Under the pieces are notes generated by a model that did no database searches, was not told where the DNA came from, and saw only the letters and a list, made by a program, of their open reading frames with translations. Source: an uncultured Oscillospiraceae bacterium (GTDB lineage Bacteria > Bacillota > Clostridia > Oscillospirales > CAG-382). From it: 45,365 nucleotides of DNA. A program made the position numbers and the translations under genes. The stretch covers positions 1 to 45,365 of the forward strand of contig CAZYFX010000001.1 in assembly GCA_964646725.1 (NCBI GenBank), read 5' to 3'. This document shows, in pieces, positions 4,370 to 34,062 of the stretch; positions within the stretch are counted from its first letter, which is position 1, and the number at the start of each line of letters is the position of its first letter.

Positions 4370-6505
4370 TTGGCAGACAACAAAACTGCCTCGTCGGTGG
4401 CCGGTGCTCAAATGGGCGCGGGACTCGACGCGGAAGTCAACACCAAAAGCGCCGATGAATTGATGGCGGAGTTTGACCGCGAATCCAACACGCGGCACTT
4501 TACCGGCGTTTTCGGCCTTATCATCAAAATCGCTTTTCTGGCGTTTGCCGCCTTTGCGTTCGGCACGCGCTTCTTCACCCTGCCCGAGCAGGTTCGTATG
4601 ACCGCCTTTTTGGGCATCATCATTTTTTTGGGCTTTTTGATCTATCCGGCTTACAAAAAGCAGTCGCAGCGGATCAACTACATTCCGTGGTATGATTTTC
4701 TTTTCGCCGTAGCCGGATCGGTTCCGTATTTCTACTACGCTTTCAATTTCGAAGCCATCACCCATCGCGCCGTGGCGATCAATATGACCGATAAGATCAT
4801 GGCGATACTCGGCATTCTGTTTTTGTTCGAGCTGTGCCGCAGAGCGGTCGGTGTGCCGATCCTCTTTGTGGCGGGCGGCTTTATTGCGTATGCCTTTATC
4901 TACGGAAAATCCTTAAACTCGGTTCTGTACAATCTGTTCTACACCACCAACGGCATTCCCGGAACGCCGCTCAATGTTTGCTCGACCTTCATTGTGTTCT
5001 TCATCATTCTGGGCGCGTTTTTGGAAAAGACCGGTATCGGCGGCTTCTTTGTAGACCTTGCCAACTCGGTCGCAGGATACGCTTCGGGCGGTCCCGCCAA
5101 GGTGGCAGTCATCTCTTCGGCACTTGAGGGCATGTATTCCGGAAGCTCCGTGGCTAATACCGTCGGAAGCGGAAGCGTGACCATCCCGGTCATGAAGAGC
5201 ATCGGCTACAAGCCGGAGTTTGCCGCAGCCGTTGAGGCGGCTGCTTCGACGGGCGGTCAGATCATGCCGCCGATCATGGGCGCGGCTGCGTTCTTAATGG
5301 CAGAGCTTACGAACATTCCGTACGCCACCATTGCCGTGGCGGCCATCCTGCCGGCTGTTTTGTACTTCACGGGCATTTTCATGATGATCCATTTCGAAGC
5401 GAAGAAATTGGGGCTTAAAGGACTTCCCAAGGAGAGCATTCCGAATTTCTTCAAGCTCCTTGTCAGCAAGGGCTATCTGTTCTTGCCAATCGTCGTGCTT
5501 GTCGTGCTCATGTCCTTCAACCGCACACCGGCGCAGTCGGCCTGCATGGCGATCTTGACCACCATGCTTCTTATGCTGGTGACGGACATCGTTAAGATGC
5601 TTAAAAATCTGAACACGGCGAACAAGATCGATTTGGTGCTTTCGCTGATTCCGATCGTCGCGTTTGTGCTCTGCATGTTCGGTTTCAAGCTTAAAATGGA
5701 AAACGCCGCGATTTTGGCCGGTCTTGTCTACATCGTTGTCTCCTTCTTCGGCAAGGAAACACGCGAATCCGGCAAGATTTCGTTGGAGGCGTTGGAGACC
5801 GGTATGCGCAACACCATGGGCGTTTCGCTTGCCTGCGGTTTGGCCGGTATCGTGGCCGGCGTCGTGACCATGACCAGTCTCGGTTCCACGCTCATCAGCG
5901 TCATTGTTCCGATCGCTCAAAACAATCTGTTCCTCGCACTGTTCTTGACCATGGTGACCTGCATCGTTCTCGGTATGGGCGTTCCGACCACAGCCAACTA
6001 TCTGATCATGGCAACCATCACCGCTCCGATCTTGATCAAAATGGGACTTCCGACGCTGGCGGCGCACATGTTCGTGTTCTATTTCGGTATCGTAGCCGAT
6101 ATCACGCCGCCGGTCGCTTTGGCGGCCTATGCGGGAAGTGCCATTGCGCATTCCAATCCGTTCAAGACGGGCGTGACGGCGACACGTCTTGCCATTACGG
6201 CCTTTATCATCCCGTATATTTTCGCATACAATCCCAAAATGCTGTTTATTAACGCAACGCCTGTGGATATCGTTCTCATCGTCATCACTTCTTTTGTCGG
6301 AGTGTTTGCGTTGTCGGCGGGCTTGGAGGGCTATATGTTCCGCAAGCTTCGCTTCTATGAGATCATTCCGCTCATTATCGGCGGACTTCTTATGATCTAT
6401 CCGGGCGCGGTTTCCGACATCATCGGCGTTCTGCTTGTGGCGGCGGTAACCGGCTTGCAGATTTACCTGACCCGCAAGGATAAAGAGCTTGCCTTAAAGG
6501 AATAA
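4370..6505 (+). CDS. TRAP transporter fused (small+large) permease, TAXI type
   Basis: TTG start with AAGGAGG RBS at 4357-4363. 711 aa, highly hydrophobic with many predicted TM segments. Follows the receptor and DUF1850 genes. Confidence 0.9.
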   Translation: MADNKTASSVAGAQMGAGLDAEVNTKSADELMAEFDRESNTRHFTGVFGLIIKIAFLAFAAFAFGTRFFTLPEQVRMTAFLGIIIFLGFLIYPAYKKQSQRINYIPWYDFLFAVAGSVPYFYYAFNFEAITHRAVAINMTDKIMAILGILFLFELCRRAVGVPILFVAGGFIAYAFIYGKSLNSVLYNLFYTTNGIPGTPLNVCSTFIVFFIILGAFLEKTGIGGFFVDLANSVAGYASGGPAKVAVISSALEGMYSGSSVANTVGSGSVTIPVMKSIGYKPEFAAAVEAAASTGGQIMPPIMGAAAFLMAELTNIPYATIAVAAILPAVLYFTGIFMMIHFEAKKLGLKGLPKESIPNFFKLLVSKGYLFLPIVVLVVLMSFNRTPAQSACMAILTTMLLMLVTDIVKMLKNLNTANKIDLVLSLIPIVAFVLCMFGFKLKMENAAILAGLVYIVVSFFGKETRESGKISLEALETGMRNTMGVSLACGLAGIVAGVVTMTSLGSTLISVIVPIAQNNLFLALFLTMVTCIVLGMGVPTTANYLIMATITAPILIKMGLPTLAAHMFVFYFGIVADITPPVALAAYAGSAIAHSNPFKTGVTATRLAITAFIIPYIFAYNPKMLFINATPVDIVLIVITSFVGVFALSAGLEGYMFRKLRFYEIIPLIIGGLLMIYPGAVSDIIGVLLVAAVTGLQIYLTRKDKELALKE

Positions 6506-6536
6506 TCGAACCTACAGGACAAAAAGTAAGAGTTAA

Positions 6537-6583
6537 AAGCCCCGAAAGAAACGCCGATTCGCGTCTCTTTCGGGGCTTTTTGT
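6537..6583. terminator. Intrinsic terminator (usable from both strands)
   Basis: GCCCCGAAAGA / TCTTTCGGGGC stem followed by TTTTTG. An A-run precedes the stem. Confidence 0.75.
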
Positions 6584-6661
6584 TTGTATTTGCGATTTGC
6601 GCAAATTATATACGTCCCAAAGTCGTGTTGCACATGAAAAATACAAGCTGTAAGTATTCGC

Positions 6662-7285
6662 CTAACAATTGTTTTTTATACATTCCGTAAAGCTGTGCAT
6701 TAACTCAAATCCCAGTCCCTTGACCGTACCGACTTTTTCGGTGCCCAGCATTGCTTTGTTTCGTATCACATCCGAAGGCACTTTTTCGTCTTTGTTAAGC
6801 ATACAGTAATAATATTTATCCTCGGAATCTCCCAAAACAATGCCGATGATTCTTGCCGTATACATTTCGTTGGCAATCGGCATAAAGCAAAGAGCGATTT
6901 TTTCTCCGGACGGCAAACTCATAATATCCGCATTCCAAGTTCCCGGATTCGTGTCGTTTCGTTTCTTATCCACCATGGACTCGGAAAAACCGACAATTTG
7001 CGGTTGATTACAAAACGTAACATATGCATTTGCAAAAAAGCTCTTTAAAGCCATCGCATTGTTTGAATGAACAATATTCGCAAATTGAGCATGATTTTGA
7101 CGACTGATATCAAATACCGCACCCGAAGCAAAATGCTCTGACGGAGTTTTTTGCTTCATATTCTGCATGATCGCTTTTATAATTTCTTCTTTTGACATAG
7201 TTGCATTGATATCTGCCGACATCGTTGAATGAACATCCGCAGCGGGAGCTGTTTTTTTCTTCTTAAAAAAATCAAATAAACCCAT
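6662..7285 (-). CDS. Orphan hypothetical protein (207 aa), AT-rich gene
   Basis: GGAGGGG RBS 6 nt upstream of the ATG at 7285 (MGLFDFFKKKK...). No signal peptide, no TM segment and no motif I recognise. G+C is clearly below that of its neighbours. Confidence 0.6.
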   Translation of the reverse strand: MGLFDFFKKKKTAPAADVHSTMSADINATMSKEEIIKAIMQNMKQKTPSEHFASGAVFDISRQNHAQFANIVHSNNAMALKSFFANAYVTFCNQPQIVGFSESMVDKKRNDTNPGTWNADIMSLPSGEKIALCFMPIANEMYTARIIGIVLGDSEDKYYYCMLNKDEKVPSDVIRNKAMLGTEKVGTVKGLGFELMHSFTECIKNNC

Positions 7286-7437
7286 ATTTTCCCCTCCGAA
7301 AATTAAGATACATATATTATACAACATATATCATCATTTGTCAGCAGATTGCACCTATAAAATCCCGATAACAGCAAACTTTTTCACAAAAGCATACAAA
7401 ATCCTATTTATGTGAAAAGATACGCACAAAAAAGTCT

Positions 7438-7500
7438 CGGAAACAAAGAAAACGGAGCTGCGACAAAACGACAAATTCGGTCGTGATGCCTGCAGCTCCG
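7438..7500 (-). terminator. Intrinsic terminator of the cohesin operon
   Basis: On the minus strand, CGGAGCTGC...GCAGCTCCG (7453-7500) forms a compound hairpin with an inner ACGAC/GTCGT stem, followed by TTTTCTTTGTTT. Confidence 0.6.
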
Positions 7501-7559
7501 ATGTGCGTTACGAGACGATCGAAGCATCTTGATCATGAATCAATCATCCCGATTGATTC

Positions 7560-10500
7560 TCAATATTTGGGAATAGCGGCCGTAAAGGTTTTTGTAAACG
7601 AGGAATCCAATGTAGTGCCGGGATAGTTTGTCTGTCTGTGGTAAACGCTTACCGACACGCTGGTGGTACCCGCCTCAACCGGTACGCTCACCCATGCCGT
7701 CGAAGCGGTTTTGGACGGCTGCGTCTTTATGTTCTCACTCCAGGTTCCCCAGGGAACAACAATCACTTCCGCGCTGCTTACGCCGCCGATGGTTGCCGTA
7801 ATGCGCTGCGAATTGTAGTTGTAGCCATAGTTTTCGGTGATCTGATCCGTCCAGGTGATTCTCATTTCGACGCTCGTCGCCGTTCTGTTTCGATATTCCG
7901 CCACTGCGGTATGAACCGTAATCGGCGATGTGTAGTGCTGTCCGGAAACCGACGTAAAGGCTACCGCCGTCGGCGTGTAATCAAATGTGATCGTTTTTGA
8001 CGTCGAATCCCAGGCAATCGTTTGAGCGGGCGGCGTGTCGTATCCGGAGATGGCCGGAGCCGAAATGGTATTTGTCGTACCGAACGCCCTTGTCGCCGTG
8101 TCCGACCCGAGACTTGTACCGTTGACGGATTTATAGACGATTGAGTATTGGTAGTAATTCACGCTTGCCGTAGCATAAATATCGTTTTCGGTGATGTTTC
8201 GGGTCACGGTTATGCTTGTTGCGCCCTTGGAAGCCAGCGTGTAGCCGGTGTTGGCTCCGTAGGAAACGCTTAAGACGTCACCGTAATACACGGTCGTGCC
8301 CGAGGAAATCGTGCCGGTCGATGCACCTGCAAGCGGCGAGGAGGTGCGCTTTACGGTGATGGAGGTGCCGGTCGATACCGACCAGGAAGCCGTGTAGGCA
8401 TTCACATTCGCCGTAGCATAAATATCGCTTGCGGTAATATTTCGGCTCACAGTTATGCTCGTTGCGCCTTTGGAAGCCAGCGTGTAGCCGGTGTTGGCAC
8501 CGTAGGAAACGCTCAAGACGTCACCGTAGTATAATACGGTCGTGCCCGAGGAGATCGTGCCGGTCGAAGCGCCTGCAAGCGGCGAGGAGGTGCGCTTTAC
8601 GGTGATGGACGTGCCGGTCGAGGATGACCAGGAAGCGGTATAGGAGTTGAGTGTCCAATGCGCGTACAACGTATGACGGCCCGCCACGGTTACTTTCGTT
8701 TCGGCTGTAACCTGCGTACCGCCGGTAGCGGATGTATACCAACCGTTAAAGGTGTAGCCGGTTCGGGTGGGTGTCGGTAAATCGCCGTAAGTGAAACCGC
8801 AGTATACGTTTTTGCTGCCCGTTGCGGTCGAACCGCCGTTTGGATCGAAGGAAACAGCACACACGCCCTTTACATAACCGGAAAACTGATCTTCGGTTAA
8901 CTGTATGATAGAACCGTCATTCACGGTCAAGTGTTGTTCACCCGTTATACTTCCGCAAAGATAAACATTACCGTAAATCTTCATAAAACCGACGGCACCG
9001 TCAACTTTTACGGATTCCAACACAGGGTTCTTTACAACGACTGCTTCTCCGTTTGTCGCCTTGAAAATGTTATCTCTGATCAACGTTATGTGAGGAGCGC
9101 TTGAAGGAAGCAACATAACATAACCATTGTTTTGGATGTTGACCGCATCGAACTTGATGTTGTCCGAAGACAAATCCAAAGGAACACAATCCTGATTTAC
9201 AATGGTAATTTCTTTTAAAGCAGTCAAATCGGCCTCCGATTTGATTTGCACATTTTTATATGTTTTATTGCCACCCTGCAATTCAAAGCTTTCCATTTCG
9301 GGAACGTCAAGCACGATATCTCCGTCCAGAATCGTGTCGGAAATATCGACAACTATGTTCTTTGCGCCGGAAGAAGCCACCGCATTCAAAAGATCAACCG
9401 TAATTGTCTTTGCATACTGCTTTCTTTCCGCCGCACTGCCGTTCGGCAACTGTTCTTTGGCATATTTTAATGCCTTAGCCTCGTTGAGCGCACGCACCGA
9501 CAGCTTCGGAGCACCGGCAAAAGCGTCTTCTCCGACATGCACTACACCGGAGGAAAGATTGAATTTTGTTAAACTCTCACATCCGCTGAACGCCTCGTCG
9601 CCGATCTTGGTAAAGTAACCCGATACGCTTTCGAGTTTTTTGCAATTCCGGAATGTACCGTTCGGGATTTCGTCGATTCCGTCACCCAAAATAACGGCTC
9701 TCACATCCGTTCCCTCAAACGCACCGGCCTTTATACCCGTTACTCTGTAGGAAGTGCCGTTTGATGTCACATACGAAGGAACGATTACATCCGCATCTTC
9801 TCCCGTATAGCCTGTTATTGTGGCTGTTTTATCGGCCGTATTGGTGGTATACTCAATTCCTTCGGTTATAACGGTTTTGCTGTTTACATATTCGTAAACC
9901 GCATACGGAATTTCAAAAGGAAGTACGCCGTTTTCACAATCGTTAAAGGCAAGGTCCGGAGCATAGTCGAGAAATTCGTACGTTTTATCGTCCTGTACAC
10001 TGTATGTATATGTAAAGTACGATTTTGTAGCTACATCGTAGCCCACAATGCCGAAAACATGAAACGTTCCGGCAAGAACAAGCCGATAACAGCCGTCGCT
10101 TTTGCCGTCGGTGGAATACTCCGTTGTGGTTATTGTTTTTTTCGCGGTCGAATAGGTAACGGTCGAAGAGGTATCAACGCTCTTACTGGAGGTGTTACTC
10201 ATTCCAAACGCTTCGCTTCCCGAACCGCCGTATGCATAGGATTGACCATATTCTTTTTCCGTGCTGATTACCTGTGACAAGATCTTGCTGACAGAAGAAC
10301 TCTGGCTTGCCGCTTGGGTGTTTTGCTTTGAAGTCGAGTTATTCCAGGTAGATGTGCTGGAAGATACAGTTGTGTCAACTTTGGTCGTATCGGTCCCCGA
10401 ATGCTCACTTACTGAGTCATTACCATAATTACCGTAACCCACGCTTCCGCTGATTTCAAATTTGCTAGTATTCTTAACGCCTCCGCTAGTTTCCACAATA

Positions 10501-12509
10501 CCCGCGTTTGCTTTTACTTCGGCCGATACTTCAGTTGAATTTGAGTATTTTCCACCAACCTCAACATCGAAATTTTGACCTTTTTCTTCCGTTTTGTTTT
10601 TACTATCGTATGTAAGGGTAGTTGTTCCGTCGGTCGTGCTGGTAGATTCGTTTCCACCTGTAGACGATGTCACCAAATATGTATTGGAAGACGATGTCAC
10701 TAATTCTTCCGCTTCTTCCTTGGTTAATCCGTTTTCTTCTGCCCAGGTTTCGTTCACTTCGGTAACCTGTTCCCAGTCACTGGCCAACGTCCATGTGCTT
10801 GAGTCTGTAGTCGCCGTATTAATGCTTGTACTGATATTTTTCGCGCAGGTCTCCGTTGTGCTTAACTCTACGGTTTCGGATTTTTTCTGTGCCAATCCCG
10901 CTACCGCCTGAATCGTCCACACCGCCTCGGACATCGGAACATTTTCAATCGTTCCGAGTTCATACGCAAAGTAAATAACATTGTTGGTCGTATCTTCGCA
11001 AATGATCGGGTTCTTCAAGGGGACACTCTTGGCTAAATTCCGTTTGCTGGTCCAGTACGCATTCAGCGTAATGTCACCCACCGTTCCGGCCGGAATACTT
11101 GTTACCTCTTTACCGTCATCCGTATACCATCCCAAAAATACATAGTTGTATATTTCCGGATTCGGAAGATCCTTCAAGCCCTTGCTTACGGTAAAATGCA
11201 AATACTTTTCGTCGGTTATTTCTCCGAGAGGCGTTTGATACAGCTTATAGGTGACATCGTAAGATATTTCTTCCCAATGCGCATATAATTTATAGTTTTT
11301 CTTGCTACCTTGCGGAATTTCCGTGATCTTTACAAAATCCTCCGCCGACTGATTTAACGACCAGCCTCGGAATTTATATCCGTCTGCGGAAAGGTCTACC
11401 AGTTCGATCGAGCCATTGGCCGTATCTTCTTCGGTATACGTCTTTTTGTTCGGGTTACTTACGCCGACTGTTTCCAAATAAGCATTATTGATCACATATT
11501 CGATCATATATCCCGTCAAAGGAGCAATCTCCTGCGGTTTAACAAGGATTTCTCCGCAAACAGAGCACCGTTTACCTTCCGTATAGCCGACTTCCGTAGC
11601 CGTAGGCTTCACGGCAGGGATCGTTTCCTCCGTATGCCCCGTTGCCGCAATCACCGTATCCTCTTGTGTGATTTCGTTCTTAGCCGCCATATCGCCGAAC
11701 AGTTTGTTGCAGTCGTCGCACATCCAATAGGCTGTATGCCCTTTTTCCGTACACGTTGCTTTGACGGCCGCAACAGCCGTTAACGAGGTGTGCTTGCATC
11801 GAGGGGTATGCGGAAGCAGTTCCACATTGTACCCGCCCGCTCTGAAACGGCGAATCAAGGAAATATCAACGGTATTGATCTTGTCATCATCGTTTACATC
11901 TGCGGCATCTTCAAAGATTGTCACATCGTAGCCGCCGGCGCGGTATCTTCGCAACCACGTTATGTCGACCGTATTAACCGTGTTGTCCCGATTCACGTCT
12001 CCCGGTTTGTAATCGATTACGTTCACGTAACCGGACAGTACCTTCGGAGAGATCGGCCGGAAGTTTTCGTCCACAATGTCTCCGTCGTCGTACGATATGC
12101 TTACATTCAATTTGTCGTAGCGCTTCGTATCTTCACTGACAGCAAAAGTCAGCTTTAAAATCGTGCCGTCTTCGGTCGCGGGGGTCTCTTGACCGTCCCA
12201 CACAAAATTGCACGGTGACGTCAAGACACCCGGAGCGGTAAATACAAGCTCGGAAAAGGCGTCCCCCGCCGATACTTCGGTCAGTGTTAATTTCGGATCG
12301 TATTCCAATGTCAGAATTGTACCCATAATACCGGGGTTGTTTTCCACATTGATTTCTACTGTGACGCTCTGTCCCGGAGCGCCGTAATGACCGTCAACCG
12401 AAAAGGTCGGAACAGCCGACGTTTCCGTACCTGCGGCCAAAACCTGTACGGGCAGCACGGAAACAATCATCAGGACCGTAAGCAATGCCGCCATGATTCT
12501 TTTTGTCAT
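7560..12509 (-). CDS. Giant secreted cohesin-dockerin surface protein (1649 aa)
   Basis: GAGGAG RBS. Signal peptide MTKRIMAALLTVLMIVSVLPVQVLAAG. Domain order: cohesin, dockerin, Cys-rich module, Listeria-Bacteroides (InlB B) repeats (GYKFRGW, FLGWYT, GYTFNGWYT), a long S/T-rich region, BspA-type LRR (AFEGT..., FRNCKKLESV, AFSGCESLTKF, AFAGAPKL), then two near-identical 81/82-aa repeats. No LPXTG motif. Confidence 0.9.
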   Translation of the reverse strand: MTKRIMAALLTVLMIVSVLPVQVLAAGTETSAVPTFSVDGHYGAPGQSVTVEINVENNPGIMGTILTLEYDPKLTLTEVSAGDAFSELVFTAPGVLTSPCNFVWDGQETPATEDGTILKLTFAVSEDTKRYDKLNVSISYDDGDIVDENFRPISPKVLSGYVNVIDYKPGDVNRDNTVNTVDITWLRRYRAGGYDVTIFEDAADVNDDDKINTVDISLIRRFRAGGYNVELLPHTPRCKHTSLTAVAAVKATCTEKGHTAYWMCDDCNKLFGDMAAKNEITQEDTVIAATGHTEETIPAVKPTATEVGYTEGKRCSVCGEILVKPQEIAPLTGYMIEYVINNAYLETVGVSNPNKKTYTEEDTANGSIELVDLSADGYKFRGWSLNQSAEDFVKITEIPQGSKKNYKLYAHWEEISYDVTYKLYQTPLGEITDEKYLHFTVSKGLKDLPNPEIYNYVFLGWYTDDGKEVTSIPAGTVGDITLNAYWTSKRNLAKSVPLKNPIICEDTTNNVIYFAYELGTIENVPMSEAVWTIQAVAGLAQKKSETVELSTTETCAKNISTSINTATTDSSTWTLASDWEQVTEVNETWAEENGLTKEEAEELVTSSSNTYLVTSSTGGNESTSTTDGTTTLTYDSKNKTEEKGQNFDVEVGGKYSNSTEVSAEVKANAGIVETSGGVKNTSKFEISGSVGYGNYGNDSVSEHSGTDTTKVDTTVSSSTSTWNNSTSKQNTQAASQSSSVSKILSQVISTEKEYGQSYAYGGSGSEAFGMSNTSSKSVDTSSTVTYSTAKKTITTTEYSTDGKSDGCYRLVLAGTFHVFGIVGYDVATKSYFTYTYSVQDDKTYEFLDYAPDLAFNDCENGVLPFEIPYAVYEYVNSKTVITEGIEYTTNTADKTATITGYTGEDADVIVPSYVTSNGTSYRVTGIKAGAFEGTDVRAVILGDGIDEIPNGTFRNCKKLESVSGYFTKIGDEAFSGCESLTKFNLSSGVVHVGEDAFAGAPKLSVRALNEAKALKYAKEQLPNGSAAERKQYAKTITVDLLNAVASSGAKNIVVDISDTILDGDIVLDVPEMESFELQGGNKTYKNVQIKSEADLTALKEITIVNQDCVPLDLSSDNIKFDAVNIQNNGYVMLLPSSAPHITLIRDNIFKATNGEAVVVKNPVLESVKVDGAVGFMKIYGNVYLCGSITGEQHLTVNDGSIIQLTEDQFSGYVKGVCAVSFDPNGGSTATGSKNVYCGFTYGDLPTPTRTGYTFNGWYTSATGGTQVTAETKVTVAGRHTLYAHWTLNSYTASWSSSTGTSITVKRTSSPLAGASTGTISSGTTVLYYGDVLSVSYGANTGYTLASKGATSITVSRNITASDIYATANVNAYTASWSVSTGTSITVKRTSSPLAGASTGTISSGTTVYYGDVLSVSYGANTGYTLASKGATSITVTRNITENDIYATASVNYYQYSIVYKSVNGTSLGSDTATRAFGTTNTISAPAISGYDTPPAQTIAWDSTSKTITFDYTPTAVAFTSVSGQHYTSPITVHTAVAEYRNRTATSVEMRITWTDQITENYGYNYNSQRITATIGGVSSAEVIVVPWGTWSENIKTQPSKTASTAWVSVPVEAGTTSVSVSVYHRQTNYPGTTLDSSFTKTFTAAIPKY
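8157..8645 (-). repeat. Tandem in-frame duplication (243 + 246 nt) inside the giant surface protein
   Basis: YTASWS(S/V)STGTSITVKRTSSPLAGASTGTISSGTTV(L)YYGDVLSVSYGANTGYTLASKGATSITV occurs twice back to back. By hand alignment roughly nine of ten nucleotides are identical, with perfect runs of 27 and 38 nt. Confidence 0.9.
11817..12005 (-). other. Dockerin module (residues ~169-231 of the 1649-aa protein)
   Basis: Duplicated Ca-binding loop plus helix: GDVNRDNTVNTVDITWLRRYRAGG and ADVNDDDKINTVDISLIRRFRAGG. Confidence 0.85.
12018..12413 (-). other. Cohesin module A (residues ~33-164)
   Basis: PTFSVDG..GAPGQSVTVEINVENNPGIMGTILTLEYDPKLTL...GDAFSEL...CNFVWDG...DGTILKLTFAVS...YDDGDIVDENF aligns with the modules at 12535-12933 and 13858-14256 and matches the general cohesin pattern. 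Confidence 0.75.
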
Positions 12510-12531
12510 TATCTTATCTCCTCACTGTTTT

Positions 12532-13824
12532 TTATTGTACGGTGATCCTACCGCCAACAAGTGTAACATCCAATTCTTCAAAGTTTTCATCTACAAGATC
12601 TCCCGGCAAATAAGAGCATTCGATCTCGTATTTGTCTCCCTTGACAGCCTTGTCGGATACGGCAAACGTAAGTGTGAGTATCACTCCGTCTGTTTTCGCA
12701 GGCTCATCCAAACCATCCCAAACAAAATTGCAGTTTGTAACAAATTTTCCGGGCTTGGTCATTTCCAATTCTGAGAAAGCATCCCCTTTTTGCGCATCTG
12801 TCAAAGTCAGTGCTTCATCAAATCGGAAATTCAAAACCGCCCCGAGAATCTTCGGGCTGTTACATATTCTGATCGAAACCTCCACGCTTTCTCCCGCTTT
12901 CGCCGAAGCGCCGTCCACAACGATCGTAGGCTCGCTATAATTCGTGCTTTCCTTTCGATCTTCGGAATTGTTTTTGCCGGTTTCGTCGGTTTTGTCCGAT
13001 TCGCCTTTCACTTCATCCCATTCACCGATGTTTTCATCTTTGTCGATTTCGGTTTTCTGCGCGGGCTCTTTCCCGATATTGCCGCTTTCGCCCGACATTC
13101 CTCCGCCTTGTGTGTCTTCTTCCGAAGCACCACCGTTTTCCGTTTCTTCCGATTCATTCGGTACAACCGCTTCGGATATTTCGAAGAGCTTATCCAAGCG
13201 CATAAAGATCGTTGCCGCCTGCGCTCTTGTGGCTTTTCCCTGCGGTTCGAGCGTCGTTGCGGTCATGCCTCGGAGCAGCCCCTTTTCGTAAGCCCAGGAC
13301 ATCGCTTCCAGAGCATAGGTTCGGATTTTGTCACTGTCTTCAAACACGGATAAATCCGCCGTTTCCGCATTGGCGATCACATCCGATCTTTTGGTCTTCG
13401 CATACCGATACAAAATTGTAGCAAGCTGCTCTCTTGTTATTTCATCATTCGGCGCAAAGATATCTTGACCGTATCCGTTGACAATGCCGTTTTCGAACGC
13501 CCATTGTATCGGAGCATAATAATAATCCGTATTCTTCACATCGGTAAATCCGAGTTCGCCGCTCACCGCGGGACTTCCTTCCGATCGATAGATAACCGTC
13601 ACGATCATCCCTCGGGTGATGCTTCTTTGCGGTTCGAATGTCGTTTCCGTCATTCCGTTCATCAAGCCCTTGTTTCTAACAAACGCCACGCTTTCCGCAA
13701 ACCATTCGGTTGACGGGACATCCGTAAACCGAACCTCTGTACCGTCCGCAAAGCAAAGAAAAGCACTCATGCACACAAGCACGGTCACAACGGAAAATAT
13801 CCGCCGTTTCATTTTCTTTTTCAA
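12532..13824 (-). CDS. Cell-wall anchoring scaffoldin-like protein: signal peptide, 3 x SLH, acidic linker, C-terminal cohesin
   Basis: TTG start (alternative ATG at 13812). The three SLH repeats begin at FTDVPSTEWFAESVAFVRNKGLMNG, FTDVKNTDYYYAPIQWAFENGIVNG and FEDSDKIRTYALEAMSWAYEKGLLRG. A D/E/K/G-rich linker follows, then the cohesin. Confidence 0.9.
   Translation of the reverse strand: MKKKMKRRIFSVVTVLVCMSAFLCFADGTEVRFTDVPSTEWFAESVAFVRNKGLMNGMTETTFEPQRSITRGMIVTVIYRSEGSPAVSGELGFTDVKNTDYYYAPIQWAFENGIVNGYGQDIFAPNDEITREQLATILYRYAKTKRSDVIANAETADLSVFEDSDKIRTYALEAMSWAYEKGLLRGMTATTLEPQGKATRAQAATIFMRLDKLFEISEAVVPNESEETENGGASEEDTQGGGMSGESGNIGKEPAQKTEIDKDENIGEWDEVKGESDKTDETGKNNSEDRKESTNYSEPTIVVDGASAKAGESVEVSIRICNSPKILGAVLNFRFDEALTLTDAQKGDAFSELEMTKPGKFVTNCNFVWDGLDEPAKTDGVILTLTFAVSDKAVKGDKYEIECSYLPGDLVDENFEELDVTLVGGRITVQ
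12535..12933 (-). other. Cohesin module B (residues ~298-430)
   Basis: PTIVVDGASAKAGESVEVSIRICNSPKILGAVLNFRFDEALTL...GDAFSELEMTKPG...NCNFVWDG...DGVILTLTFAVS...GDLVDENF. Confidence 0.75.
13189..13731 (-). other. Triple SLH (S-layer homology) region
   Basis: Three ~55-60 aa repeats with the FxDV...W...(A/V)...G(I/L)(M/V/L)xG...F.P...(I/A)TR(G/E/A)(M/Q) pattern. Confidence 0.85.
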
Positions 13825-13854
13825 GATCGTACCCCCATGTTTTTTTTATCGCTT

Positions 13855-15564
13855 TTACCGAACCGTAACTTTTCCGGCTACCAAATCCAAATCGGTTGCC
13901 GCAAAATTGCTGTCAACAACGTCACCGTCCGCATAAGAACAGCTGATATTCAGTTCATCTCCCACTTCGGCCGTATCGGAAACCTTAAATACAAGCTTTA
14001 AGATTTCGCCGTCTTTGGTTGCGGGCGTTGCCTGCCCGTCCCACAAAAAATTGCAGGGCGACACCAACGAACCGGGCGGTGTCATCACAAATTCATCAAA
14101 CGCACTGCCGGCACTTGATGATACAAGCGTCAACTTGGGATCAAAATTAAAGGTAAGAATAGCACCAAACAGACCGGGATTTTTCTTGATTTCTACCGAA
14201 ACCTCCACCTGCTCGCCGACCCCGGCCGTTGCATTTCCCACAACGAAGGTCGGAGTTGTATATGTCACTTCGTTCTTTTGATACACGGCCGTTACGGTCA
14301 TACTTTCCGTTACGCGGTCAAACGTTTTATCCCAGCCGGTAAAGGTATATCCGTCTCGCGTGGGATTCGAAGGCGCCGTTGCCGTTTTACCCGAAGCGAC
14401 GGTATCCGTACCGAGAACCTTTCCGTCGTGATCTTTAAAGGTCACGGTATAGTAGGTGGTTTTGGCAAAATGAATCTCTGCATTGATAAGGGCATCATTT
14501 CCCGTTCCGATGGCATCCAAAAGGACTTTCCACTCTTCCTCGGAACCTTCATAGTAAACATCGGTCAAAGAGGTGCAGCCGTTAAATGCTTTGCGTCCGA
14601 TTTCCGTAACCGTCACGGGAACGGTTACGGAGGTAATCGCCTCGTTGGCAAAAGCGGAAGAATCGACGGATGTAACGGTGTCTCCGGCAGGAGAAAGTGT
14701 GGGAATGATCAGTTCCGTATCTGTGCAGGTTCCCATTCCTACAAGGCAGCAAGTGCCGTCGCCGTTCGAATCAAAGGAAAGCCCAACGGACTGCTTTTGA
14801 TAAACCGCCGTATAAACTTCATTGCGTGTTCCTACCGTAACGGAAGCTCGGGCGGTACGGGCAACCGTGTCACCGGCCTTATTTACCCAATGAGAAAAAG
14901 AGACACCCTTGTCATCGACGGTCGGAGCAATCAAATTTACCTTTTCGCTTTCGAGGTAAAGCCCATGATCGCATAAATCATCGATTACCCCTCCGACGAC
15001 CTTGACCTGATAAAAATCGTTTGTGGCAAGTCTTGCGGTTTTGTAGTCAAAATACTTTTGTGCATTCGCACCGTATACAAGCATGGAAGAAAGCAAGGTC
15101 TTGAGTGTTTCATCTGTCGAAGCTGTTGCCGTTTTTCCCAACTTGCTGTAAACGTATTCGAGAATACTGTACTTTTCAACCTTACTGTAATACGCTGTGC
15201 CATCTACAACCGTATACGCACGGGCATACACAACATCCGTCATTTGCTTTGCGGCAAGCGACGTATAGTCGTAGATTTTATAGGAAGCATCGTTTATTTG
15301 TTGAGTACCGACAGTTTTCAATTCAGCGACATGTGTTCCGTACAGATATTTATCGGAAGGCGCATCCCACAGCAAAAGAATTGTTTCTTCCGAACTGTCC
15401 GACGAAACGGCATATTTTATGCACACATTGTCTCGGAATGAAAGATTGCAATATTGAATGCTCATTTCGGGAGTTTCGACGGCTGCTTCGGCAAAAATCG
15501 CCACGCCGAGCACGAATACAGCCACAAACGACATTACCGCCAGTCTTTTTAATGTTTTTTTCAT
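13855..15564 (-). CDS. Secreted protein: unknown N-terminal domain, BspA-type LRR, Listeria-Bacteroides repeat, C-terminal cohesin (569 aa)
   Basis: GAAGGAGA RBS. Signal peptide MKKTLKRLAVMSFVAVFVLGVAIFAEA. LRR motifs SSAFANEAITSVTVP and KAFNGCTSLTDVYYEGSEEEW. B-repeat motifs YTVTFKDHDGKVLG and GYTFTGWDK. Cohesin at the C-terminus. Confidence 0.9.
   Translation of the reverse strand: MKKTLKRLAVMSFVAVFVLGVAIFAEAAVETPEMSIQYCNLSFRDNVCIKYAVSSDSSEETILLLWDAPSDKYLYGTHVAELKTVGTQQINDASYKIYDYTSLAAKQMTDVVYARAYTVVDGTAYYSKVEKYSILEYVYSKLGKTATASTDETLKTLLSSMLVYGANAQKYFDYKTARLATNDFYQVKVVGGVIDDLCDHGLYLESEKVNLIAPTVDDKGVSFSHWVNKAGDTVARTARASVTVGTRNEVYTAVYQKQSVGLSFDSNGDGTCCLVGMGTCTDTELIIPTLSPAGDTVTSVDSSAFANEAITSVTVPVTVTEIGRKAFNGCTSLTDVYYEGSEEEWKVLLDAIGTGNDALINAEIHFAKTTYYTVTFKDHDGKVLGTDTVASGKTATAPSNPTRDGYTFTGWDKTFDRVTESMTVTAVYQKNEVTYTTPTFVVGNATAGVGEQVEVSVEIKKNPGLFGAILTFNFDPKLTLVSSSAGSAFDEFVMTPPGSLVSPCNFLWDGQATPATKDGEILKLVFKVSDTAEVGDELNISCSYADGDVVDSNFAATDLDLVAGKVTVR
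13858..14256 (-). other. Cohesin module C (residues 437-569)
   Basis: TPTFVVGNATAGVGEQVEVSVEIKKNPGLFGAILTFNFDPKLTL...GSAFDEF...CNFLWDGQATPATKDGEILKLVFKVS...YADGDVVDSNF. It is closest to module A. Confidence 0.75.
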
Positions 15565-15586
15565 TTAACATTCTCCTTCTTTCGTT

Positions 15587-15718
15587 TTAATTGAACAAAG
15601 ATAATTGATCCCATTCCCCTTGGTTAGGATCCGTGTCAATAGGAGAGATTGCAAGTATATCTTCTTTTACCAATACCTCTATATTCATCTCAGGCTTTTC
15701 ATATTGTTTTTTTTGCAT
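15587..15718 (-). CDS. Small 43-aa acidic ORF at the head of the cohesin operon
   Basis: GGAGGA RBS 8 nt upstream of the ATG at 15718. Sequence MQKKQYEKPEMNIEVLVKEDILAISPIDTDPNQGEWDQLSLFN. Its stop codon lies 22 nt before the next gene's start. The upstream part of the listed 75-aa ORF has no RBS. Confidence 0.5.
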   Translation of the reverse strand: MQKKQYEKPEMNIEVLVKEDILAISPIDTDPNQGEWDQLSLFN

Positions 15719-15935
15719 TATACATTCCTCCTTCCGTCGCATATTCACTTTTTTCGATGTGCCATTTTCGCCTCCGAATTTTCGAATACATTTTTCTCCC
15801 GTACACCTTTTCAAGATGTCTTCTGAATTTGCCTATACTGAATACAGGCAACTGTTTAGCTAATTATCAAAAATTTTACCATCCTTTCACAAACTCCCGA
15901 AAGCGCACTGCTCCCGTATTATTCTTTGCTATCTA

Positions 15936-15961
15936 ACGTTTACATTATATAACGTAAACGT
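15936..15961. promoter_or_regulatory. 26-bp near-perfect palindrome, candidate operator in the divergent intergenic region
   Basis: ACGTTTACATTAT/ATAACGTAAACGT with one mismatched position. The half-site TTTACATTA recurs at 16010-16018, just after a candidate -10 GATAAT (16003-16008; candidate -35 TTCAAG at 15980-15985). Confidence 0.45.
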
Positions 15962-16046
15962 CTATTTGTCAAGCCTTTTTTCAAGATATCATGTATACGT
16001 TAGATAATTTTTACATTAACACCGTCTTTGCAAGGAGGAATGCGCG

Positions 16047-16295
16047 GTGAAGCTTCGTATACTTGACATCTTGGCCGAAAAAGGAAAAACCAAATATTGG
16101 CTTTACATACAATTGGGACTCAGCTACCAAAACTTCAATCATTTGGTCAACAACGAAACCAAGGGCATCAAATTCGAAAACATGGAAGCTCTTTGCGACA
16201 TTCTGGAATGCACCCCCAACGATCTGTTTTACGAATATCACTCCGATTTACCGCCCGATATGCCAAACCGACAAGAGAGCAACAGTCTCTGTTAA
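16047..16295 (+). CDS. XRE/Cro-CI family helix-turn-helix transcriptional regulator (82 aa)
   Basis: GTG start with AAGGAGGA RBS at 16032-16039. LRILDILAEKGKTKYWLYIQLGLSYQNFNHLVNN...IKFENMEALCDILECTPNDLF matches the short Cro/C1-type HTH pattern. Confidence 0.85.
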   Translation: MKLRILDILAEKGKTKYWLYIQLGLSYQNFNHLVNNETKGIKFENMEALCDILECTPNDLFYEYHSDLPPDMPNRQESNSLC

Positions 16296-16482
16296 AGATG
16301 TTTTTCAAGCATCGCGGAAGCTGTTTTTTTGTTATGTAAACAATCGACATTGCACCGACTCGCCTTTCGCCTGTGTTCGACTCTTTCACCGAAGCTCTCC
16401 CCTTTCCCGTTTGCACAAAACCTTTTTGCGCTCCTCGTCCAAGTGCTTTCCCAACCGACCGTTTCATTCATCACTCACAAAA

Positions 16483-16528
16483 AGACCGAAGCAAAATGTC
16501 CTCAAACACCTTGCTTCGGTCTTTTTTT
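16483..16528. terminator. Bidirectional intrinsic terminator
   Basis: AGACCGAAGCAA / TTGCTTCGGTCT stem flanked by an A-run and TTTTTTT. It lies immediately 3' of the minus-strand gene ending at 16541. Confidence 0.75.
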
Positions 16529-16540
16529 ACCTATTTTAAT

Positions 16541-18148
16541 TCAATCGATGACCACACTGAGCGCTCCCGGCACCTCATATTCCGTTCCGGTAAACGTCAG
16601 CGAACCGTCCGCATTTACATCGAACAGCGTGATCGTCCCGCCCTCGTTGGCCGAAATCAACGACCGTCCGTCGGGAGACAGGCAGAAATCACGCGGACGC
16701 TTGCCGTGCACCGACGTGTTGTCCGCATAAGTCAGCGTCGCGCCGTTCACCTTGAAGCGCGTGATCGAGTCGTGCCCGCGCGTCGAAACGTACAGATTGT
16801 CACCGTGCAGACGAATCGCCGCCGCCGTGGTCAGACCATCACAGCCGAACGGAAGCATGTCGTAGGATTCGAGCCGTGTCAAGATTCCGTCGGCGTAGGC
16901 ATACACCGTAACGGTATTGTCCAATTCGTTGGCACAATACGCATACGCGCCGTCCTCCGAAAAGATCAAATGACGTGGGCCCGAGCCGGGAACGGCCGAA
17001 GCGGTCGATACTTCGCACAGATTTTTGTCATACACATGTACGGTATCCGTCCCCAGGTCGCAGACCGTGATATATTTTCCGTCCGGCGTAAAAGCTACCT
17101 GATGCGTATGCTCCTTGTCCTGGCGCGGCTTGGAAACGCCCTCTCCGCAGTGGTACACGATGTGCGTTGCGCCGTTCGGTTCGATTTTGGTCACACTTCC
17201 CGTCAGATAGTTGGCAATATACGCGCTTCCGTCGTCATCCACCGCCACATGGCAGGATGCCTTGCCGCGCGCAGCCGAAATCGGTGTACGCCCCACAAGC
17301 CGATCTTCCCACAAATCGTAGCATACAAGTCCTCCCTCGCGATATCCCATCGGCTCGTTGACAACGGCGTACAGCTTGCCGCGCTTGATCTGCATGTACA
17401 TCACGCCCTCGTCCTCGTACTTTTCTTCGAAGGTCAGCTTGCCGCCGTCGAGCGTGTACCGATAGATACCGCCGTTCTTTTCGGGGCCGGCCGCATAGAC
17501 GGTAAAGCGACGGCGCGTGTGGGAAATGAGCCACTCGTAAACATTGTCCTCCAGATAGGCGCGATTCCAGCTGTCGTGCTCCGTGTTTTCGCAGATCACA
17601 AGCTCAAGCTCCGCATTATCGGGGCAGGCCGCCTTCATGCTTTCGTACATTTCCTTGCTGCGTTCGGGAAGCACCGCGCCGTCCCGATCGCCGTGATACG
17701 CGCGAATGGGAAGTGCCGCGATACGGCCGCTCTTCCACGCCATACCGCCGCCGCAGATGGGGGAAGCCGCCGCGAAGAAATTCGGATAGGTACACAGCAT
17801 ATCCCATGTACCGAAGCCGCCCATGCTGGCGCCGCTGATCGAGACGCGAAGTCGGTCGATCGGGTAAGTGTCGCACACAAGGTCGATGATCTCTTTCAGT
17901 GAGCGAAGCTGTCCGCTCCAGGTGGCAAAACGCGAATGCGGCAGTAAAAGGATCGCCTGCGTAGCAAATTTTCGGTAGCCCAAATAGGACGGATTGGTCA
18001 ACAGAACGCGCGGATCGTTTCCGTAGGTTCCGGCTCCGTGAAGCGCAACGATCAGCGGGTACTTCTTGTTCGGGTCATAGTCCTCGGGGGTGCAGACGTA
18101 ATAGCTGATATCGGTTTGGTTTTGAATGTAACGGTAAAGCTTGTCCAT
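16541..18148 (-). CDS. Fusion protein: N-terminal alpha/beta-hydrolase (esterase/peptidase S9-like) plus C-terminal 7-bladed beta-propeller lactonase (Pgl/YbhE family)
   Basis: AAGGAGA RBS. N-terminal motifs YPLIVALHGAG, GASMGG (GxSxG), HGDRDG and EHDSW. The C-terminal region (GSGPRHLIFSEDGAYAYCANELDNTVTVYAY, RPRDFCLSPDGRSLISANEGGTITLF) is typical of lactonase propellers. Confidence 0.8.
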   Translation of the reverse strand: MDKLYRYIQNQTDISYYVCTPEDYDPNKKYPLIVALHGAGTYGNDPRVLLTNPSYLGYRKFATQAILLLPHSRFATWSGQLRSLKEIIDLVCDTYPIDRLRVSISGASMGGFGTWDMLCTYPNFFAAASPICGGGMAWKSGRIAALPIRAYHGDRDGAVLPERSKEMYESMKAACPDNAELELVICENTEHDSWNRAYLEDNVYEWLISHTRRRFTVYAAGPEKNGGIYRYTLDGGKLTFEEKYEDEGVMYMQIKRGKLYAVVNEPMGYREGGLVCYDLWEDRLVGRTPISAARGKASCHVAVDDDGSAYIANYLTGSVTKIEPNGATHIVYHCGEGVSKPRQDKEHTHQVAFTPDGKYITVCDLGTDTVHVYDKNLCEVSTASAVPGSGPRHLIFSEDGAYAYCANELDNTVTVYAYADGILTRLESYDMLPFGCDGLTTAAAIRLHGDNLYVSTRGHDSITRFKVNGATLTYADNTSVHGKRPRDFCLSPDGRSLISANEGGTITLFDVNADGSLTFTGTEYEVPGALSVVID

Positions 18149-18266
18149 AGCGGTTCTCCTTTTACGTTTTTTTACATTATAACCGATTCACACGCAAAAA
18201 GCAAGAGCTTATCCGAATATTTGCCAAATTCTTTCATCGGTTCGACCCACGCACCGCCCGAAAAAA

Positions 18267-18304
18267 AGCACAGACCGTTTTTTTCAACAGTCTGTGCTTT
18301 TTTC
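18267..18304. terminator. Bidirectional intrinsic terminator after pfkA
   Basis: AGCACAGAC / GTCTGTGCT stem flanked by AAAAAAA and TTTTTT. Confidence 0.75.
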
Positions 18305-18322
18305 ACTTCAATTGTCTTTCGC

Positions 18323-19390
18323 TTACATGGCCATGATCTTGGCGATATCGTAGGTTCTCTGCATACCGTCGCGGATCTCCTTGGCATGTGCAAGCATTTT
18401 CTCGCGAAGCTTCGGCTCGATGGCTGCAATCTCCTCTTCGGTTGCCTTGCCCTTGACGATGCGATCGAGCTCGAACGCATATTCCATCTCGGTCTCGCAC
18501 ACCTTGCCGCCGTTGTAGCAGACCACAAGATTGTACTTTCCTTCCAACAGAAGATCGACCGCCTTGTCGCCCATTTCGCTGGCAACCACGCGATCCATAC
18601 AGGTCGGGCAGCCGCCGCGCTGTACATGTGCCAAACGTGCAAAGCGTGTCTCGATACCGGTCGCCTTTTCGATTTCGACCGCCAATTCCTCCGTGTGCGT
18701 TGCACCCAAGCCCTCGGAAGCGATCACGATAAAGTTGCGCTTGCCCTGAGCCGACAGCGTTTTGATGCGCTCGATCAACTCCTGCTTGTCGAACGGAATT
18801 TCGCGAATGGCGATACCCACAGCGCCTACGGCAATGCCGCAATCCAGCGCTATGTAGCCCGCGTTGCGTCCCATGACCTCGACCACGTTGCAGCGTGCAT
18901 GCGATTCGCAGGTGTCGCGCAGACGGTCAACCATTTCGATGACCGTGTTCTTGGCGGTATCGTAGCCGATGGTATATTCGGAAGCGGAAATATCGTTGTC
19001 GATCGTACCGGGGATACCGATGCACGGAATACCCAGACGGGATAAGTCGGTCGCACCGCGGAACGTACCGTCACCGCCGATGGTCACGATGCCGTCAATG
19101 CCGTTCTTTTTGCAGTTTTCGACGGCCAGAGCCAGTCCCTCGGGGGTCTTGAACTTATCGCAGCGGTCGGAGTACAGCATGGTGCCGCCGTGATTGATGA
19201 TGTTGGACACGTCGCGCGGCGTGAACAGCTTCATATCGTTTTCGAGCAGTCCCTTGTAGCCGCAATAAATCCCCATGACCTCGATGCCTTTATAGGAAGC
19301 GCTTCTGACGACCGAACGAATGGCCGCATTCATGCCGGGCGCGTCTCCGCCGGAGGTCAGAACGCCGATTCTCTTAAATGTCTTTCCCAT
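18323..19390 (-). CDS. pfkA: ATP-dependent 6-phosphofructokinase
   Basis: RIGVLTSGGDAPGMNAAIR, TIGGDGT, GIPGTIDND, MGR and the HVQRGG region are canonical PfkA motifs. An RBS is present. Confidence 0.95.
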   Translation of the reverse strand: MGKTFKRIGVLTSGGDAPGMNAAIRSVVRSASYKGIEVMGIYCGYKGLLENDMKLFTPRDVSNIINHGGTMLYSDRCDKFKTPEGLALAVENCKKNGIDGIVTIGGDGTFRGATDLSRLGIPCIGIPGTIDNDISASEYTIGYDTAKNTVIEMVDRLRDTCESHARCNVVEVMGRNAGYIALDCGIAVGAVGIAIREIPFDKQELIERIKTLSAQGKRNFIVIASEGLGATHTEELAVEIEKATGIETRFARLAHVQRGGCPTCMDRVVASEMGDKAVDLLLEGKYNLVVCYNGGKVCETEMEYAFELDRIVKGKATEEEIAAIEPKLREKMLAHAKEIRDGMQRTYDIAKIMAM

Positions 19391-20375: not shown

Positions 20376-20385
20376 ACAAACGGAA

Positions 20386-20420: not shown

Positions 20421-20423
20421 CTA

Positions 20424-34033: not shown

Positions 34034-34062
34034 AGCGCAAAAGAAAGCGATAGGTGAAGCAA

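Follow-up and report, generated by a model that had tools for sequence, protein, structure and literature searches.

A four-gene cohesin-dockerin cassette with an SLH anchor and no recognisable enzyme in an uncultured Oscillospiraceae bacterium

We analysed a stretch of 45,365 nucleotides (nt), hereafter the window, from an uncultured Oscillospiraceae bacterium (GenBank assembly GCA_964646725.1, contig CAZYFX010000001.1), in which four co-oriented open reading frames (ORFs) of 43, 569, 430 and 1649 amino acids (aa) lie head to tail on the minus strand. They encode a small acidic protein, a leucine-rich repeat (LRR) protein that ends in a cohesin, an S-layer homology (SLH) protein that also ends in a cohesin, and a giant protein that begins with a cohesin followed by a dockerin. 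The intergenic gaps are 22, 30 and 22 nt, with a purine-rich ribosome-binding site (RBS) in each. The coordinates, the short gaps and the RBS of each gene are as described in an initial annotation made from the letters of the DNA. The public record of the 430-aa protein (P0001; P and L numbers denote compared proteins and loci) starts at an ATG at 13812, four codons later, and is 426 aa long. The coordinates of all features are given in Table 1.

The promoter scan found only one strong promoter upstream of the four genes, followed by an untranslated leader, whereas a hairpin with a U-tract closes the operon downstream of the giant gene. The terminator hairpin had a folding energy of -39.4 kcal/mol (z = -6.1), and none of 200 shuffled sequences folded as well. 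No Rfam family matched the leader at E <= 1 and its folding z-score was only -1.9; a riboswitch or other leader RNA was rejected on these grounds. A simple scan revealed no terminator-like or promoter site at the gene junctions, although the terminator scan overall performed at chance (16 sites against 11.6 expected), as did the generic promoter scan. With one promoter upstream, one terminator downstream and none in the junctions, a single transcription unit from promoter to terminator would be the simplest reading. The initial annotation had likewise proposed a single operon with a hairpin after the last gene only, and the gene order is kept in other species.

All three large proteins have signal peptides for Sec export and contain one cohesin each. 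The Pfam model PF00963, with a gathering score of 24.1 bits, gave 36.5 bits for residues 439-565 of the 569-aa protein and 34.9 bits for residues 300-428 of the 430-aa protein; the module of the giant was missed when the full-length protein was scanned and scored 41.9 bits when scanned alone. An alignment of the three modules needed no gaps and gave 46-52% identity; in BLASTP, the pairs matched one another with E-values from 1e-43 to 1e-49. Structure modelling of the cohesin fold covered the module of the giant. The AlphaFold2 (AF2) model of residues 27-240, built on a 24-sequence alignment, had a predicted local distance difference test (pLDDT) score of 92.3 and a predicted template modelling (TM) score of 0.78, in keeping with the nine-stranded jelly-roll beta-sandwich of cohesins. 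In a Foldseek search of the PDB with this model, the top 50 matches were all cohesins with a probability of 1.00, and the target-normalised TM-scores to single-module chains (OlpA, ScaB, CaCohA2, CipA, ScaC and the archaeal cohesin 2xdh) were 0.74-0.83 at 16-24% identity. Additionally, a family profile built from 14 sequences matched 36 PDB cohesins, and the best of these, at about 1e-10, were the cohesins of anchoring proteins (OlpA, 3ul4_A, 8.7e-11; ScaC, 4uyp; ScaB, 4ums).

The family is nearest to the type I cohesins of anchoring proteins and forms a divergent type-I-like clade. The mutual alignment of the three modules and their identification as cohesins, both claimed earlier, held up: profile hidden Markov model (HMM) searches placed three cohesins, one dockerin and three SLH repeats above their curated thresholds, and the modelled module had a true cohesin fold and not that of an unrelated beta-sandwich. 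The proposal that a CNF(V/L)WDG core marks a distinct subtype fared less well. The motif is absent from the best-matching solved cohesins, but it occurs in only about half of the family's own modules, and the clade is divergent rather than a demonstrated new type. When the entire 45-kb window was scanned with HMMs in six frames, exactly three cohesins and one dockerin were found, all of them in the operon.

The dockerin of the giant scored 41 bits with Dockerin_1 (PF00404, cut-off 22.9) at residues 169-221 and shows the internal duplication expected from the initial annotation. It consists of a repeat pair of the 22-residue type with the EF-hand-like Ca loops DVNRDNTVNTVD and DVNDDDKINTVD, each followed by a helix (two helices in the AF2 model). 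The two halves, DVNRDNTVNTVDITWLRRYRAGGYDV and DVNDDDKINTVDISLIRRFRAGGYNV, have identical putative contact residues, TV at positions 10/11 and RR at 17/18. Such identity between halves is the signature of the dual binding mode of type I dockerins, and the best PDB matches were type I dockerins, with an E-value of 1.7e-6 for CelS. Only 2-3 residues (IDYKPGDVN) join the cohesin to the dockerin, and AF2 modelled this head of the giant as one rigid unit. A secreted polypeptide that combines a cohesin with a dockerin has the arrangement of an adaptor scaffoldin (ScaC-like), and dozens of proteins of 1300-1900 aa keep this arrangement. Because the junction is so short and the unit rigid, binding of the dockerin would have to occur in trans; because the local cohesins are close paralogues and the junction is too short for fold-back, the dockerin can probably also enter the cohesin of a second giant, which would chain the giants head to tail.

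A signal peptide opens the 430-aa anchor; behind it come three SLH repeats (about 13180-13734) and an acidic linker that leads to the C-terminal cohesin. The SLH model PF00395 matched three stretches with 117 bits, in agreement with the three repeats noticed earlier. We found more than 1200 homologues of this anchor, mostly of 370-460 aa and composed of SLH repeats plus a cohesin, in gut and rumen metagenomes and in metagenome-assembled genomes of Oscillospiraceae and other Clostridia. A second large SLH protein of 1514 aa is encoded in the window (22447-26991, plus strand) and contains aBig_2, DUF4430 and Glug regions and a C-terminal SLH triplet; its presence suggests that the SLH route of wall anchoring is in use in this organism. 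It is adjoined by a gene (27105-30137, plus strand) for a 1010-aa protein with a WbsX-like glycosyltransferase region and a stalk-like C-terminal copper-amine-oxidase-N1 domain.

The 569-aa protein consists of a signal peptide, an unassigned N-terminal domain, Flg_new_2, LRR_5 and Flg_new regions and the C-terminal cohesin, and Pfam found neither an anchor nor a dockerin in it. Its passenger region was 66-67% identical to the counterparts in loci L005 and L006, while the cohesins there were only 32-38% identical.

Behind the head of the giant, a Cys-rich segment whose C..C motifs are kept in homologous giants leads into Flg_new repeats, a conserved middle domain and a C-terminal passenger. In this protein Pfam gave 48 bits for the BspA-type LRR_5 region (residues about 886-1215) and 79 bits for Flg_new. 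A tandem duplication of 243 bp at 8167-8644 (2.0 copies, 89% matches) gives rise to two 81-aa repeats, for which no Pfam family was found. Among the passengers named in the initial annotation, the LRR and Flg_new types were recovered as LRR_5, Flg_new and Flg_new_2, while its Ig-like repeats correspond to the two 81-aa copies without a Pfam match. We found no catalytic family in the operon proteins even in relaxed Pfam scans of sub-regions, which was consistent with the earlier statement that no recognisable catalytic domain is present.

The middle domain (residues 491-885) is conserved in all giants at 28-41% identity. It had no Pfam match, including in relaxed scans of five sub-regions of the giant, and its profile matched no PDB sequence. 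It comprises a beta-rich core and a Ser/Thr/Gly-rich insert with amphipathic strands of period 2. An AF2 model from 26 sequences had a pLDDT of 56.9 overall and 70-84 in the core, and in it the insert formed one hairpin, with strands of about 36 residues and a pLDDT of 30-45. Set against shuffles of matched composition, the amphipathic stretches of the insert, such as EVSAEVKANAGIVET, were stronger in 13 of 25 giants (p <= 0.05). Foldseek returned nothing significant for this domain (best E = 0.01, TM <= 0.13); the non-significant list consisted almost entirely of beta-pore-forming toxins in the pore state, which probably reflects only the geometry of the modelled hairpin. Kinship with MACPF was rejected, since hhalign gave a probability of 0.3% against P0324, a MACPF protein described below. 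No significant sequence or structure similarity to a beta-barrel pore-forming toxin was found for the domain, and the amphipathic hairpin is the single feature of such toxins that is present. We regard these pore-like features as a lead rather than a finding, although the middle domain may be no simple part of an adhesin.

Table 1. Positions of the cassette, its modules and its control elements in the window, and of the invertible segments predicted in related loci
Feature	Position	Strand	Remark
Small acidic protein, 43 aa	15587-15718	-	AAGGAGG RBS 8 nt upstream
LRR/Flg_new-cohesin protein, 569 aa	13855-15564	-	
Cohesin of 569-aa protein	13858-14259	-	C-terminal
SLH-cohesin anchor, 430 aa	12532-13824	-	TTG start
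Cohesin of 430-aa anchor	12535-12936	-	C-terminal
Giant, 1649 aa	7560-12509	-	
Cohesin of giant, residues 32-165	12015-12416	-	Pfam, AF2, Foldseek
Dockerin of giant, residues 166-232	11814-12014	-	Dockerin_1
Cys-rich zinc-ribbon-like segment (residues 233-335), then Flg_new repeats (to 490)	11040-11813	-	Pfam Flg_new
Conserved middle domain, residues 491-885	9855-11039	-	homologous giants
C-terminal passenger: LRR_5, Flg_new, two 81-aa repeats, unassigned 197-aa end domain	7560-9854	-	
Predicted sigma-70 promoter, TTGACA-17-TATAAT	15944-15972	-	12/12 consensus matches (promoter scan)
5' leader, ~225 nt	15719-15943	-	
Predicted intrinsic terminator, GGAGCUGC…GCAGCUCC stem, then U-tract	about 7440-7497	-	closes operon
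XRE-type (Cro/C1, HTH_26) regulator gene, 82 aa	16047-16295	+	Pfam 51 bits
21-nt inverted pair	15930-15950 / 15986-16006	n/a	brackets promoter
Palindrome ACGTTTAC-N10-GTAAACGT	15936-15961		overlaps -10 box
Inverton-like segments of relatives	L005:8421-8689; L006:795-1066; L088:753-1038; L091:1007-1319		segment about 270-310 bp

The 43-aa protein is acidic (9 D/E against 4 K/R) and has neither a signal peptide nor a hydrophobic segment; the RBS of its gene is strong. We found 62 homologues of 40-68 aa, none of which had a Pfam family or an informative name. The family motif is Y-E-x-P-…-(E/D)D(I/V)(L/I)T-x-S…(D/P)NQGEWD, of which the window copy is the YE(K)PE…NQGEWD type. In every context inspected, the small gene either reaches directly up to an LRR_5/Flg_new(_2) gene (about 570-700 aa) or overlaps its start, and this linkage holds even for members that are only 36-40% identical. 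The LRR_5/Flg_new gene behind it usually ends in a cohesin, dockerin-bearing giants usually follow, and the SLH anchor is optional. Compared with the copy in L085, the ORF differs mostly at third codon positions. Judged by these sequence comparisons, the 43-aa ORF is a genuine gene, and no other component of the cassette is linked so strictly; the initial annotation had treated it as incidental, and its linkage in every inspected context shows it to be integral. The small protein was absent from IMG/VR viral contigs, and the motif NQGEWD was not found in the searched literature.

In gut and rumen Oscillospiraceae and Clostridia, the cassette was found to combine a small peptide with an LRR/Flg_new-cohesin protein and a giant that has the cohesin-dockerin head; the SLH-cohesin anchor is optional. 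The contig scan used SLH-derived patterns, so that 74 of its 80 loci were generic SLH proteins and only L005-L010 were informative; the head search returned only proteins of less than 600 aa, mostly fragments, and it was the dockerin search that yielded full-length giants. Every locus with a full-length anchor that was examined (L001, L005-L010 and L085-L089) also contained a giant with the head and a third cohesin protein without a dockerin. These giants are laid out like that of the window: the signal peptide is followed by the cohesin and the dockerin, then by the Cys-rich segment, Flg_new repeats and the middle domain, and then by LRR_5 and Flg_new. L085-L087, L088/L089, L005, L006 and a 190-kb JGI contig have the four genes in exactly the order of the window. 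In L085-L087 the anchor is 69% identical, and the operon has the same flank of a lactonase gene and a helix-turn-helix (HTH) gene.

The DNA homology between the window and L085 ends exactly at the stop codon of the giant (7560), beyond which the genes differ, and the comparison revealed no insertion scars. The GC content dips to 45-49% across the operon (window about 6000-17000), compared with 52-57% in the flanks; as the homology ends without scars, this dip is the sole ground for an island hypothesis. A 221-aa ORF just downstream of the operon terminator (6662-7327, minus strand) has its own promoter at 7344-7316 with 11/12 matches, lacks a Pfam match and is absent from L085.

A variant in L001-L004 has the order anchor, giant and three-cohesin protein (about 7600-21000 in each locus). 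Its neighbours are a small serine recombinase (resolvase), DUF6076, AAA_25, NikA/MobC-like, RepA_N and ParB genes, its chromosomal contexts differ, and more than 1000 assembly blocks have an identical L001-type anchor protein. These mobility-gene neighbours, together with the differing contexts and the identical anchor, suggest that this version is part of a very successful mobile element. No mobility genes were found near the window operon.

A neighbour-joining tree of 41 family cohesins revealed that the cohesins of four-gene loci cluster by locus and not by role, in the groups window plus L085, L006, L088, and L005 plus L091. Clustering of the three cohesins of a locus fits a situation in which all three recognise the single local dockerin. 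The initial annotation had reasoned from three cohesins and one dockerin that further dockerin partners must be encoded elsewhere; this is not required, as the three cohesins could share the local one.

A full HMMER scan with the dockerin yielded 2667 cluster representatives at E <= 1e-3, of which 376 were at E <= 1e-10. Among the best 150 matches we found dozens of proteins of 1300-1900 aa with the dockerin at residues about 165-236. In the 40 nearest carriers submitted to Pfam, the families were LRR_5 (17), Cohesin (14), Flg_new (9), LRR_8 (7), Big_3 (4), Flg_new_2 (4), NlpC/P60 (3) and MACPF (2), with single occurrences of M23, CHAP, GDSL, SASA, transglutaminase and others. These 40 carriers lacked any family of cellulases, xylanases or amylases, and no glycoside hydrolase (GH) family was present in 231 relatives of the head. 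In particular, P0324 is a MACPF protein with the cohesin-dockerin unit at its C-terminus and the identical IDYKPGDVN junction. The carrier counts indicate that the dockerin subtype and its connector serve mainly binding-type passengers, with a lytic or membrane-attack minority. Some carriers consist of 4-11 tandem dockerin-like stretches, for example P0299 with 7. Within the window, the sole dockerin is that of the giant, and the GH10-, GH16- and amylase-like genes have none; no dockerin-bearing carbohydrate-active enzyme (CAZyme), the mark of a cellulosome or amylosome, was found in the window.

Upstream of the operon, a gene for an XRE-type HTH protein diverges from it. L085-L087 have the same divergent gene, and L103/L104 have an XRE HTH gene as well. 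The promoter is bracketed by 21-nt inverted repeats that are only 35 nt apart, which gives them the look of operators, and a palindrome overlaps the -10 box. Equivalent operator-like repeats were found in L085 at 2219-2295. The HTH protein probably represses the operon through these promoter-overlapping repeats. Next to the HTH gene lies a gene (16541-18148, minus strand) for a 535-aa protein with an esterase/peptidase_S9-like N-terminus fused to a 7-bladed lactonase beta-propeller, and it adjoins the HTH gene in L085 and L087 too.

In L005, L006, L088, L091 and the JGI contig, a tyrosine recombinase gene lies immediately upstream instead. Between the recombinase gene and the small ORF, we found inverted repeats of 22-27 nt with the core CATAATT-N3-ATTATG, 218-269 bp apart, which enclose a strong promoter and a hairpin. 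In L005 this promoter points towards the operon; in L006 and L088 it points the other way, and the internal layout is mirrored. Upon comparison of L005 and L088, whose flanks are colinear, 62 internal nucleotides matched on the opposite strand. By its sequence, this segment has the anatomy of an invertible promoter (inverton). Eight contigs of the same species from different samples were all in one orientation, and flipping within a population is thus not demonstrated. An inverton in the window was rejected, as it has neither matching repeats nor a recombinase, and L001, L090 and L101 have only shorter inverted repeats upstream of their cassettes, too weak for an inverton call. The initial annotation had missed this regulatory layer, both the HTH gene with operator-like repeats in the window and the predicted invertible promoter in relatives.

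Two further genes of the window encode proteins for which no Pfam family was found, namely a 501-aa protein (985-2490, minus strand; E <= 1e-3) and a 665-aa protein among sugar-acid and GH-like genes (34054-36051, plus strand; E <= 1e-4).

We propose that the operon probably encodes a wall-anchored, non-enzymatic system for display and oligomerisation through cohesin-dockerin contacts. In this system, the SLH triplet would fix the 430-aa protein to the secondary cell-wall polymer, and the Ca-dependent, internally symmetric dockerin of the giant would plug into the cohesin of the anchor. Docking would create an adhesin-type arm of about 1400 residues, made up of Flg_new, LRR and unassigned modules and kept at a distance from the cell. 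Entry of the dockerin into the cohesin of a second giant would probably produce head-to-tail chains, and entry into the cohesin of the 569-aa protein would probably produce an unanchored or alternative complex with a second LRR/Flg_new arm. Expression would depend on one strong promoter, probably repressed by the XRE-type HTH protein, and relatives would be switched on and off by an invertible promoter. The cytoplasmic 43-aa acidic protein would be an obligatory partner of the 569-aa gene. The initial annotation had described a wall-anchored machine for adhesion or display, and the anchored, enzyme-free display is retained here; its adhesion part draws on domain types only.

Several points weigh against this proposal. 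The adhesin role is read from the LRR_5 and Flg_new family names only, and about 800 residues of the giant are without a family assignment. We infer the single transcript from signals in the DNA. In the cohesin tree, the L001/L007-L010-type cohesins group by role, and gene conversion instead of shared specificity could have produced the clustering by locus. The dockerin subtype is not exclusively non-enzymatic, as it is also carried by NlpC/P60, M23, CHAP, GDSL lipase, SASA esterase and MACPF proteins, and the search for dockerin-bearing enzymes spans the 45-kb window, 40 carriers and 231 head relatives. A broader enzyme complement is at the centre of one alternative, in which the locus supplies only the scaffoldin part of an ordinary cellulosome or amylosome, dockerin-bearing GHs encoded elsewhere occupy the free cohesins and the giant is one accessory among others. 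The excess of three cohesins over one dockerin in the window fits this alternative, as does the fact that SLH-cohesin proteins are classic anchoring scaffoldins and gave the best PDB matches; LRR-dockerin proteins also coexist with enzymes in Ruminococcus flavefaciens and Ruminococcus bromii. We nevertheless consider it quite unlikely, because many species and mobile elements have the cassette as a self-contained unit without an adjoining CAZyme, and because cellulase, xylanase and amylase families were found neither among the 40 carriers and 231 head relatives nor, in dockerin-bearing form, in the window.

Another alternative takes the middle domain for a beta-barrel pore-former (aerolysin- or haemolysin-like), aimed by the LRR and Flg_new regions and concentrated by cohesin-dockerin oligomers in a rack for contact-dependent attack. 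It draws on the very long beta-hairpin that AF2 formed from the insert, on the amphipathic strands of 13 giants, on the toxin-rich Foldseek list, on the fusion of the head to MACPF in P0324 and on the presence of the dockerin subtype on NlpC/P60, M23 and CHAP wall hydrolases. The hairpin has, however, a very low pLDDT, the Foldseek scores are not meaningful, no sequence or profile match to solved toxins or MACPF was obtained, and Ser/Thr-rich beta-stalks are also common in Gram-positive adhesins; we therefore judge an attack rack unlikely. A fuller version would have the self-stacking head build wall-anchored chains of giants with a pore-forming or oligomerising middle domain, as a phase-variable or repressor-controlled attack device with MACPF and wall-hydrolase relatives, and the NQGEWD protein (40-60 aa) as its cytoplasmic partner in immunity, chaperoning or regulation. 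We give this version, too, only a small chance of being correct. Finally, the cassette may be cargo of mobile elements, a mating or aggregation adhesin that aids conjugative contact as enterococcal aggregation substance does. The mobility genes and differing contexts of L001-L004, the identity of the L001-type anchor in so many assembly blocks and the GC dip of the window operon are in line with this account. On the other side, no gene for transfer, replication or an integrase lies near the operon in the window or in L085, core sugar-metabolism genes surround the cassette of L093/L094 with just a small recombinase beside it, and the cassette is absent from IMG/VR viral contigs, which makes a mating role very unlikely.

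Research on cohesin-dockerin pairs has dealt almost wholly with their role as the glue of enzyme complexes that degrade fibre and starch, and here they occur in a closed, enzyme-free cassette. This cassette is widespread in uncultured gut and rumen Oscillospiraceae and Clostridia, with switching by inversion predicted in some lineages and an apparent repressor in others. If a wall-anchored display system of this kind mediates attachment to host, food particles or other microbes, abundant gut anaerobes would have in it a major colonisation determinant that has so far gone unrecognised. Additionally, the fused cohesin-dockerin head, if it binds itself, would be a natural self-assembling connector for protein engineering, and the family of small proteins that leads the cassette has so far been unnamed.

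Phase variation of a surface structure by an inverton is exemplified by cwpV with RecV in Clostridioides difficile. The related loci L005, L006, L088 and L091 resemble this system in having a promoter between inverted repeats beside a tyrosine recombinase gene, with both orientations represented across loci, and they differ in this respect from the window, which has neither the repeats nor the recombinase.

The anchor resembles OlpA, OlpC, SdbA and OlpB/Orf2p of Acetivibrio thermocellus, which likewise combine a cohesin with an SLH triplet and attach dockerin proteins non-covalently to the wall, and the OlpA cohesin was both the best profile match and a top structural match to the window family. 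In contrast to these anchors, the order in the window is reversed, with the SLH repeats N-terminal and the cohesin C-terminal, and its cohesin family shares only 16-24% identity with solved cohesins. Moreover, the ligand in the window is an enzyme-free giant instead of a scaffoldin or an enzyme, and the genes form a dedicated four-gene cassette.

In R. flavefaciens, the adaptor ScaC consists of one cohesin and one dockerin, and the adhesin CttA is docked on the wall anchor ScaE. ScaE is anchored covalently by sortase, and CttA binds cellulose within a fibre-degrading system. The window shares with this sca system an adaptor-like cohesin-dockerin unit and a non-catalytic binding protein that would be held at the surface and is encoded beside the anchor. 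It differs in the use of SLH repeats instead of sortase and in the head, which is fused almost without a linker to the N-terminus of a giant passenger. Dockerin-bearing LRR proteins are known from R. flavefaciens as well (PMC2930009).

The closest likeness to the head itself is in R. bromii, where Amy4 has a cohesin as well as a dockerin on one protein; its cohesin binds its own dockerin, binding in trans predicts multimers, and multimerisation has been proposed (PMC4611034). In the same species, an LRR-bearing dockerin protein is bound by the wall anchor Sca2 (PMC4611034), much as the anchor of the window would bind its giant. Unlike the window, Amy4 is a GH13 amylase for starch degradation in a system with a sortase-dependent anchor, and no small-peptide gene, XRE regulator or inverton has been described for it. 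Neither the cassette nor the head, small protein or inverton that belong to it were described in the searched literature. In human ruminococci, 'adhesion-type' scaffoldins have been described in which cohesin proteins carry LRR, Ig-like and mucin-binding domains, with a proposed role in adhesion (bioRxiv 10.64898/2026.02.05.704116); those cellulosome-like systems of Ruminococcus also contain enzymes, unlike the cassette of the window (bioRxiv 10.64898/2026.02.05.704116). LRR-dockerin proteins, the self-binding Amy4 and adhesion-type scaffoldins were thus known beforehand, and the cassette itself is new to the literature searched.

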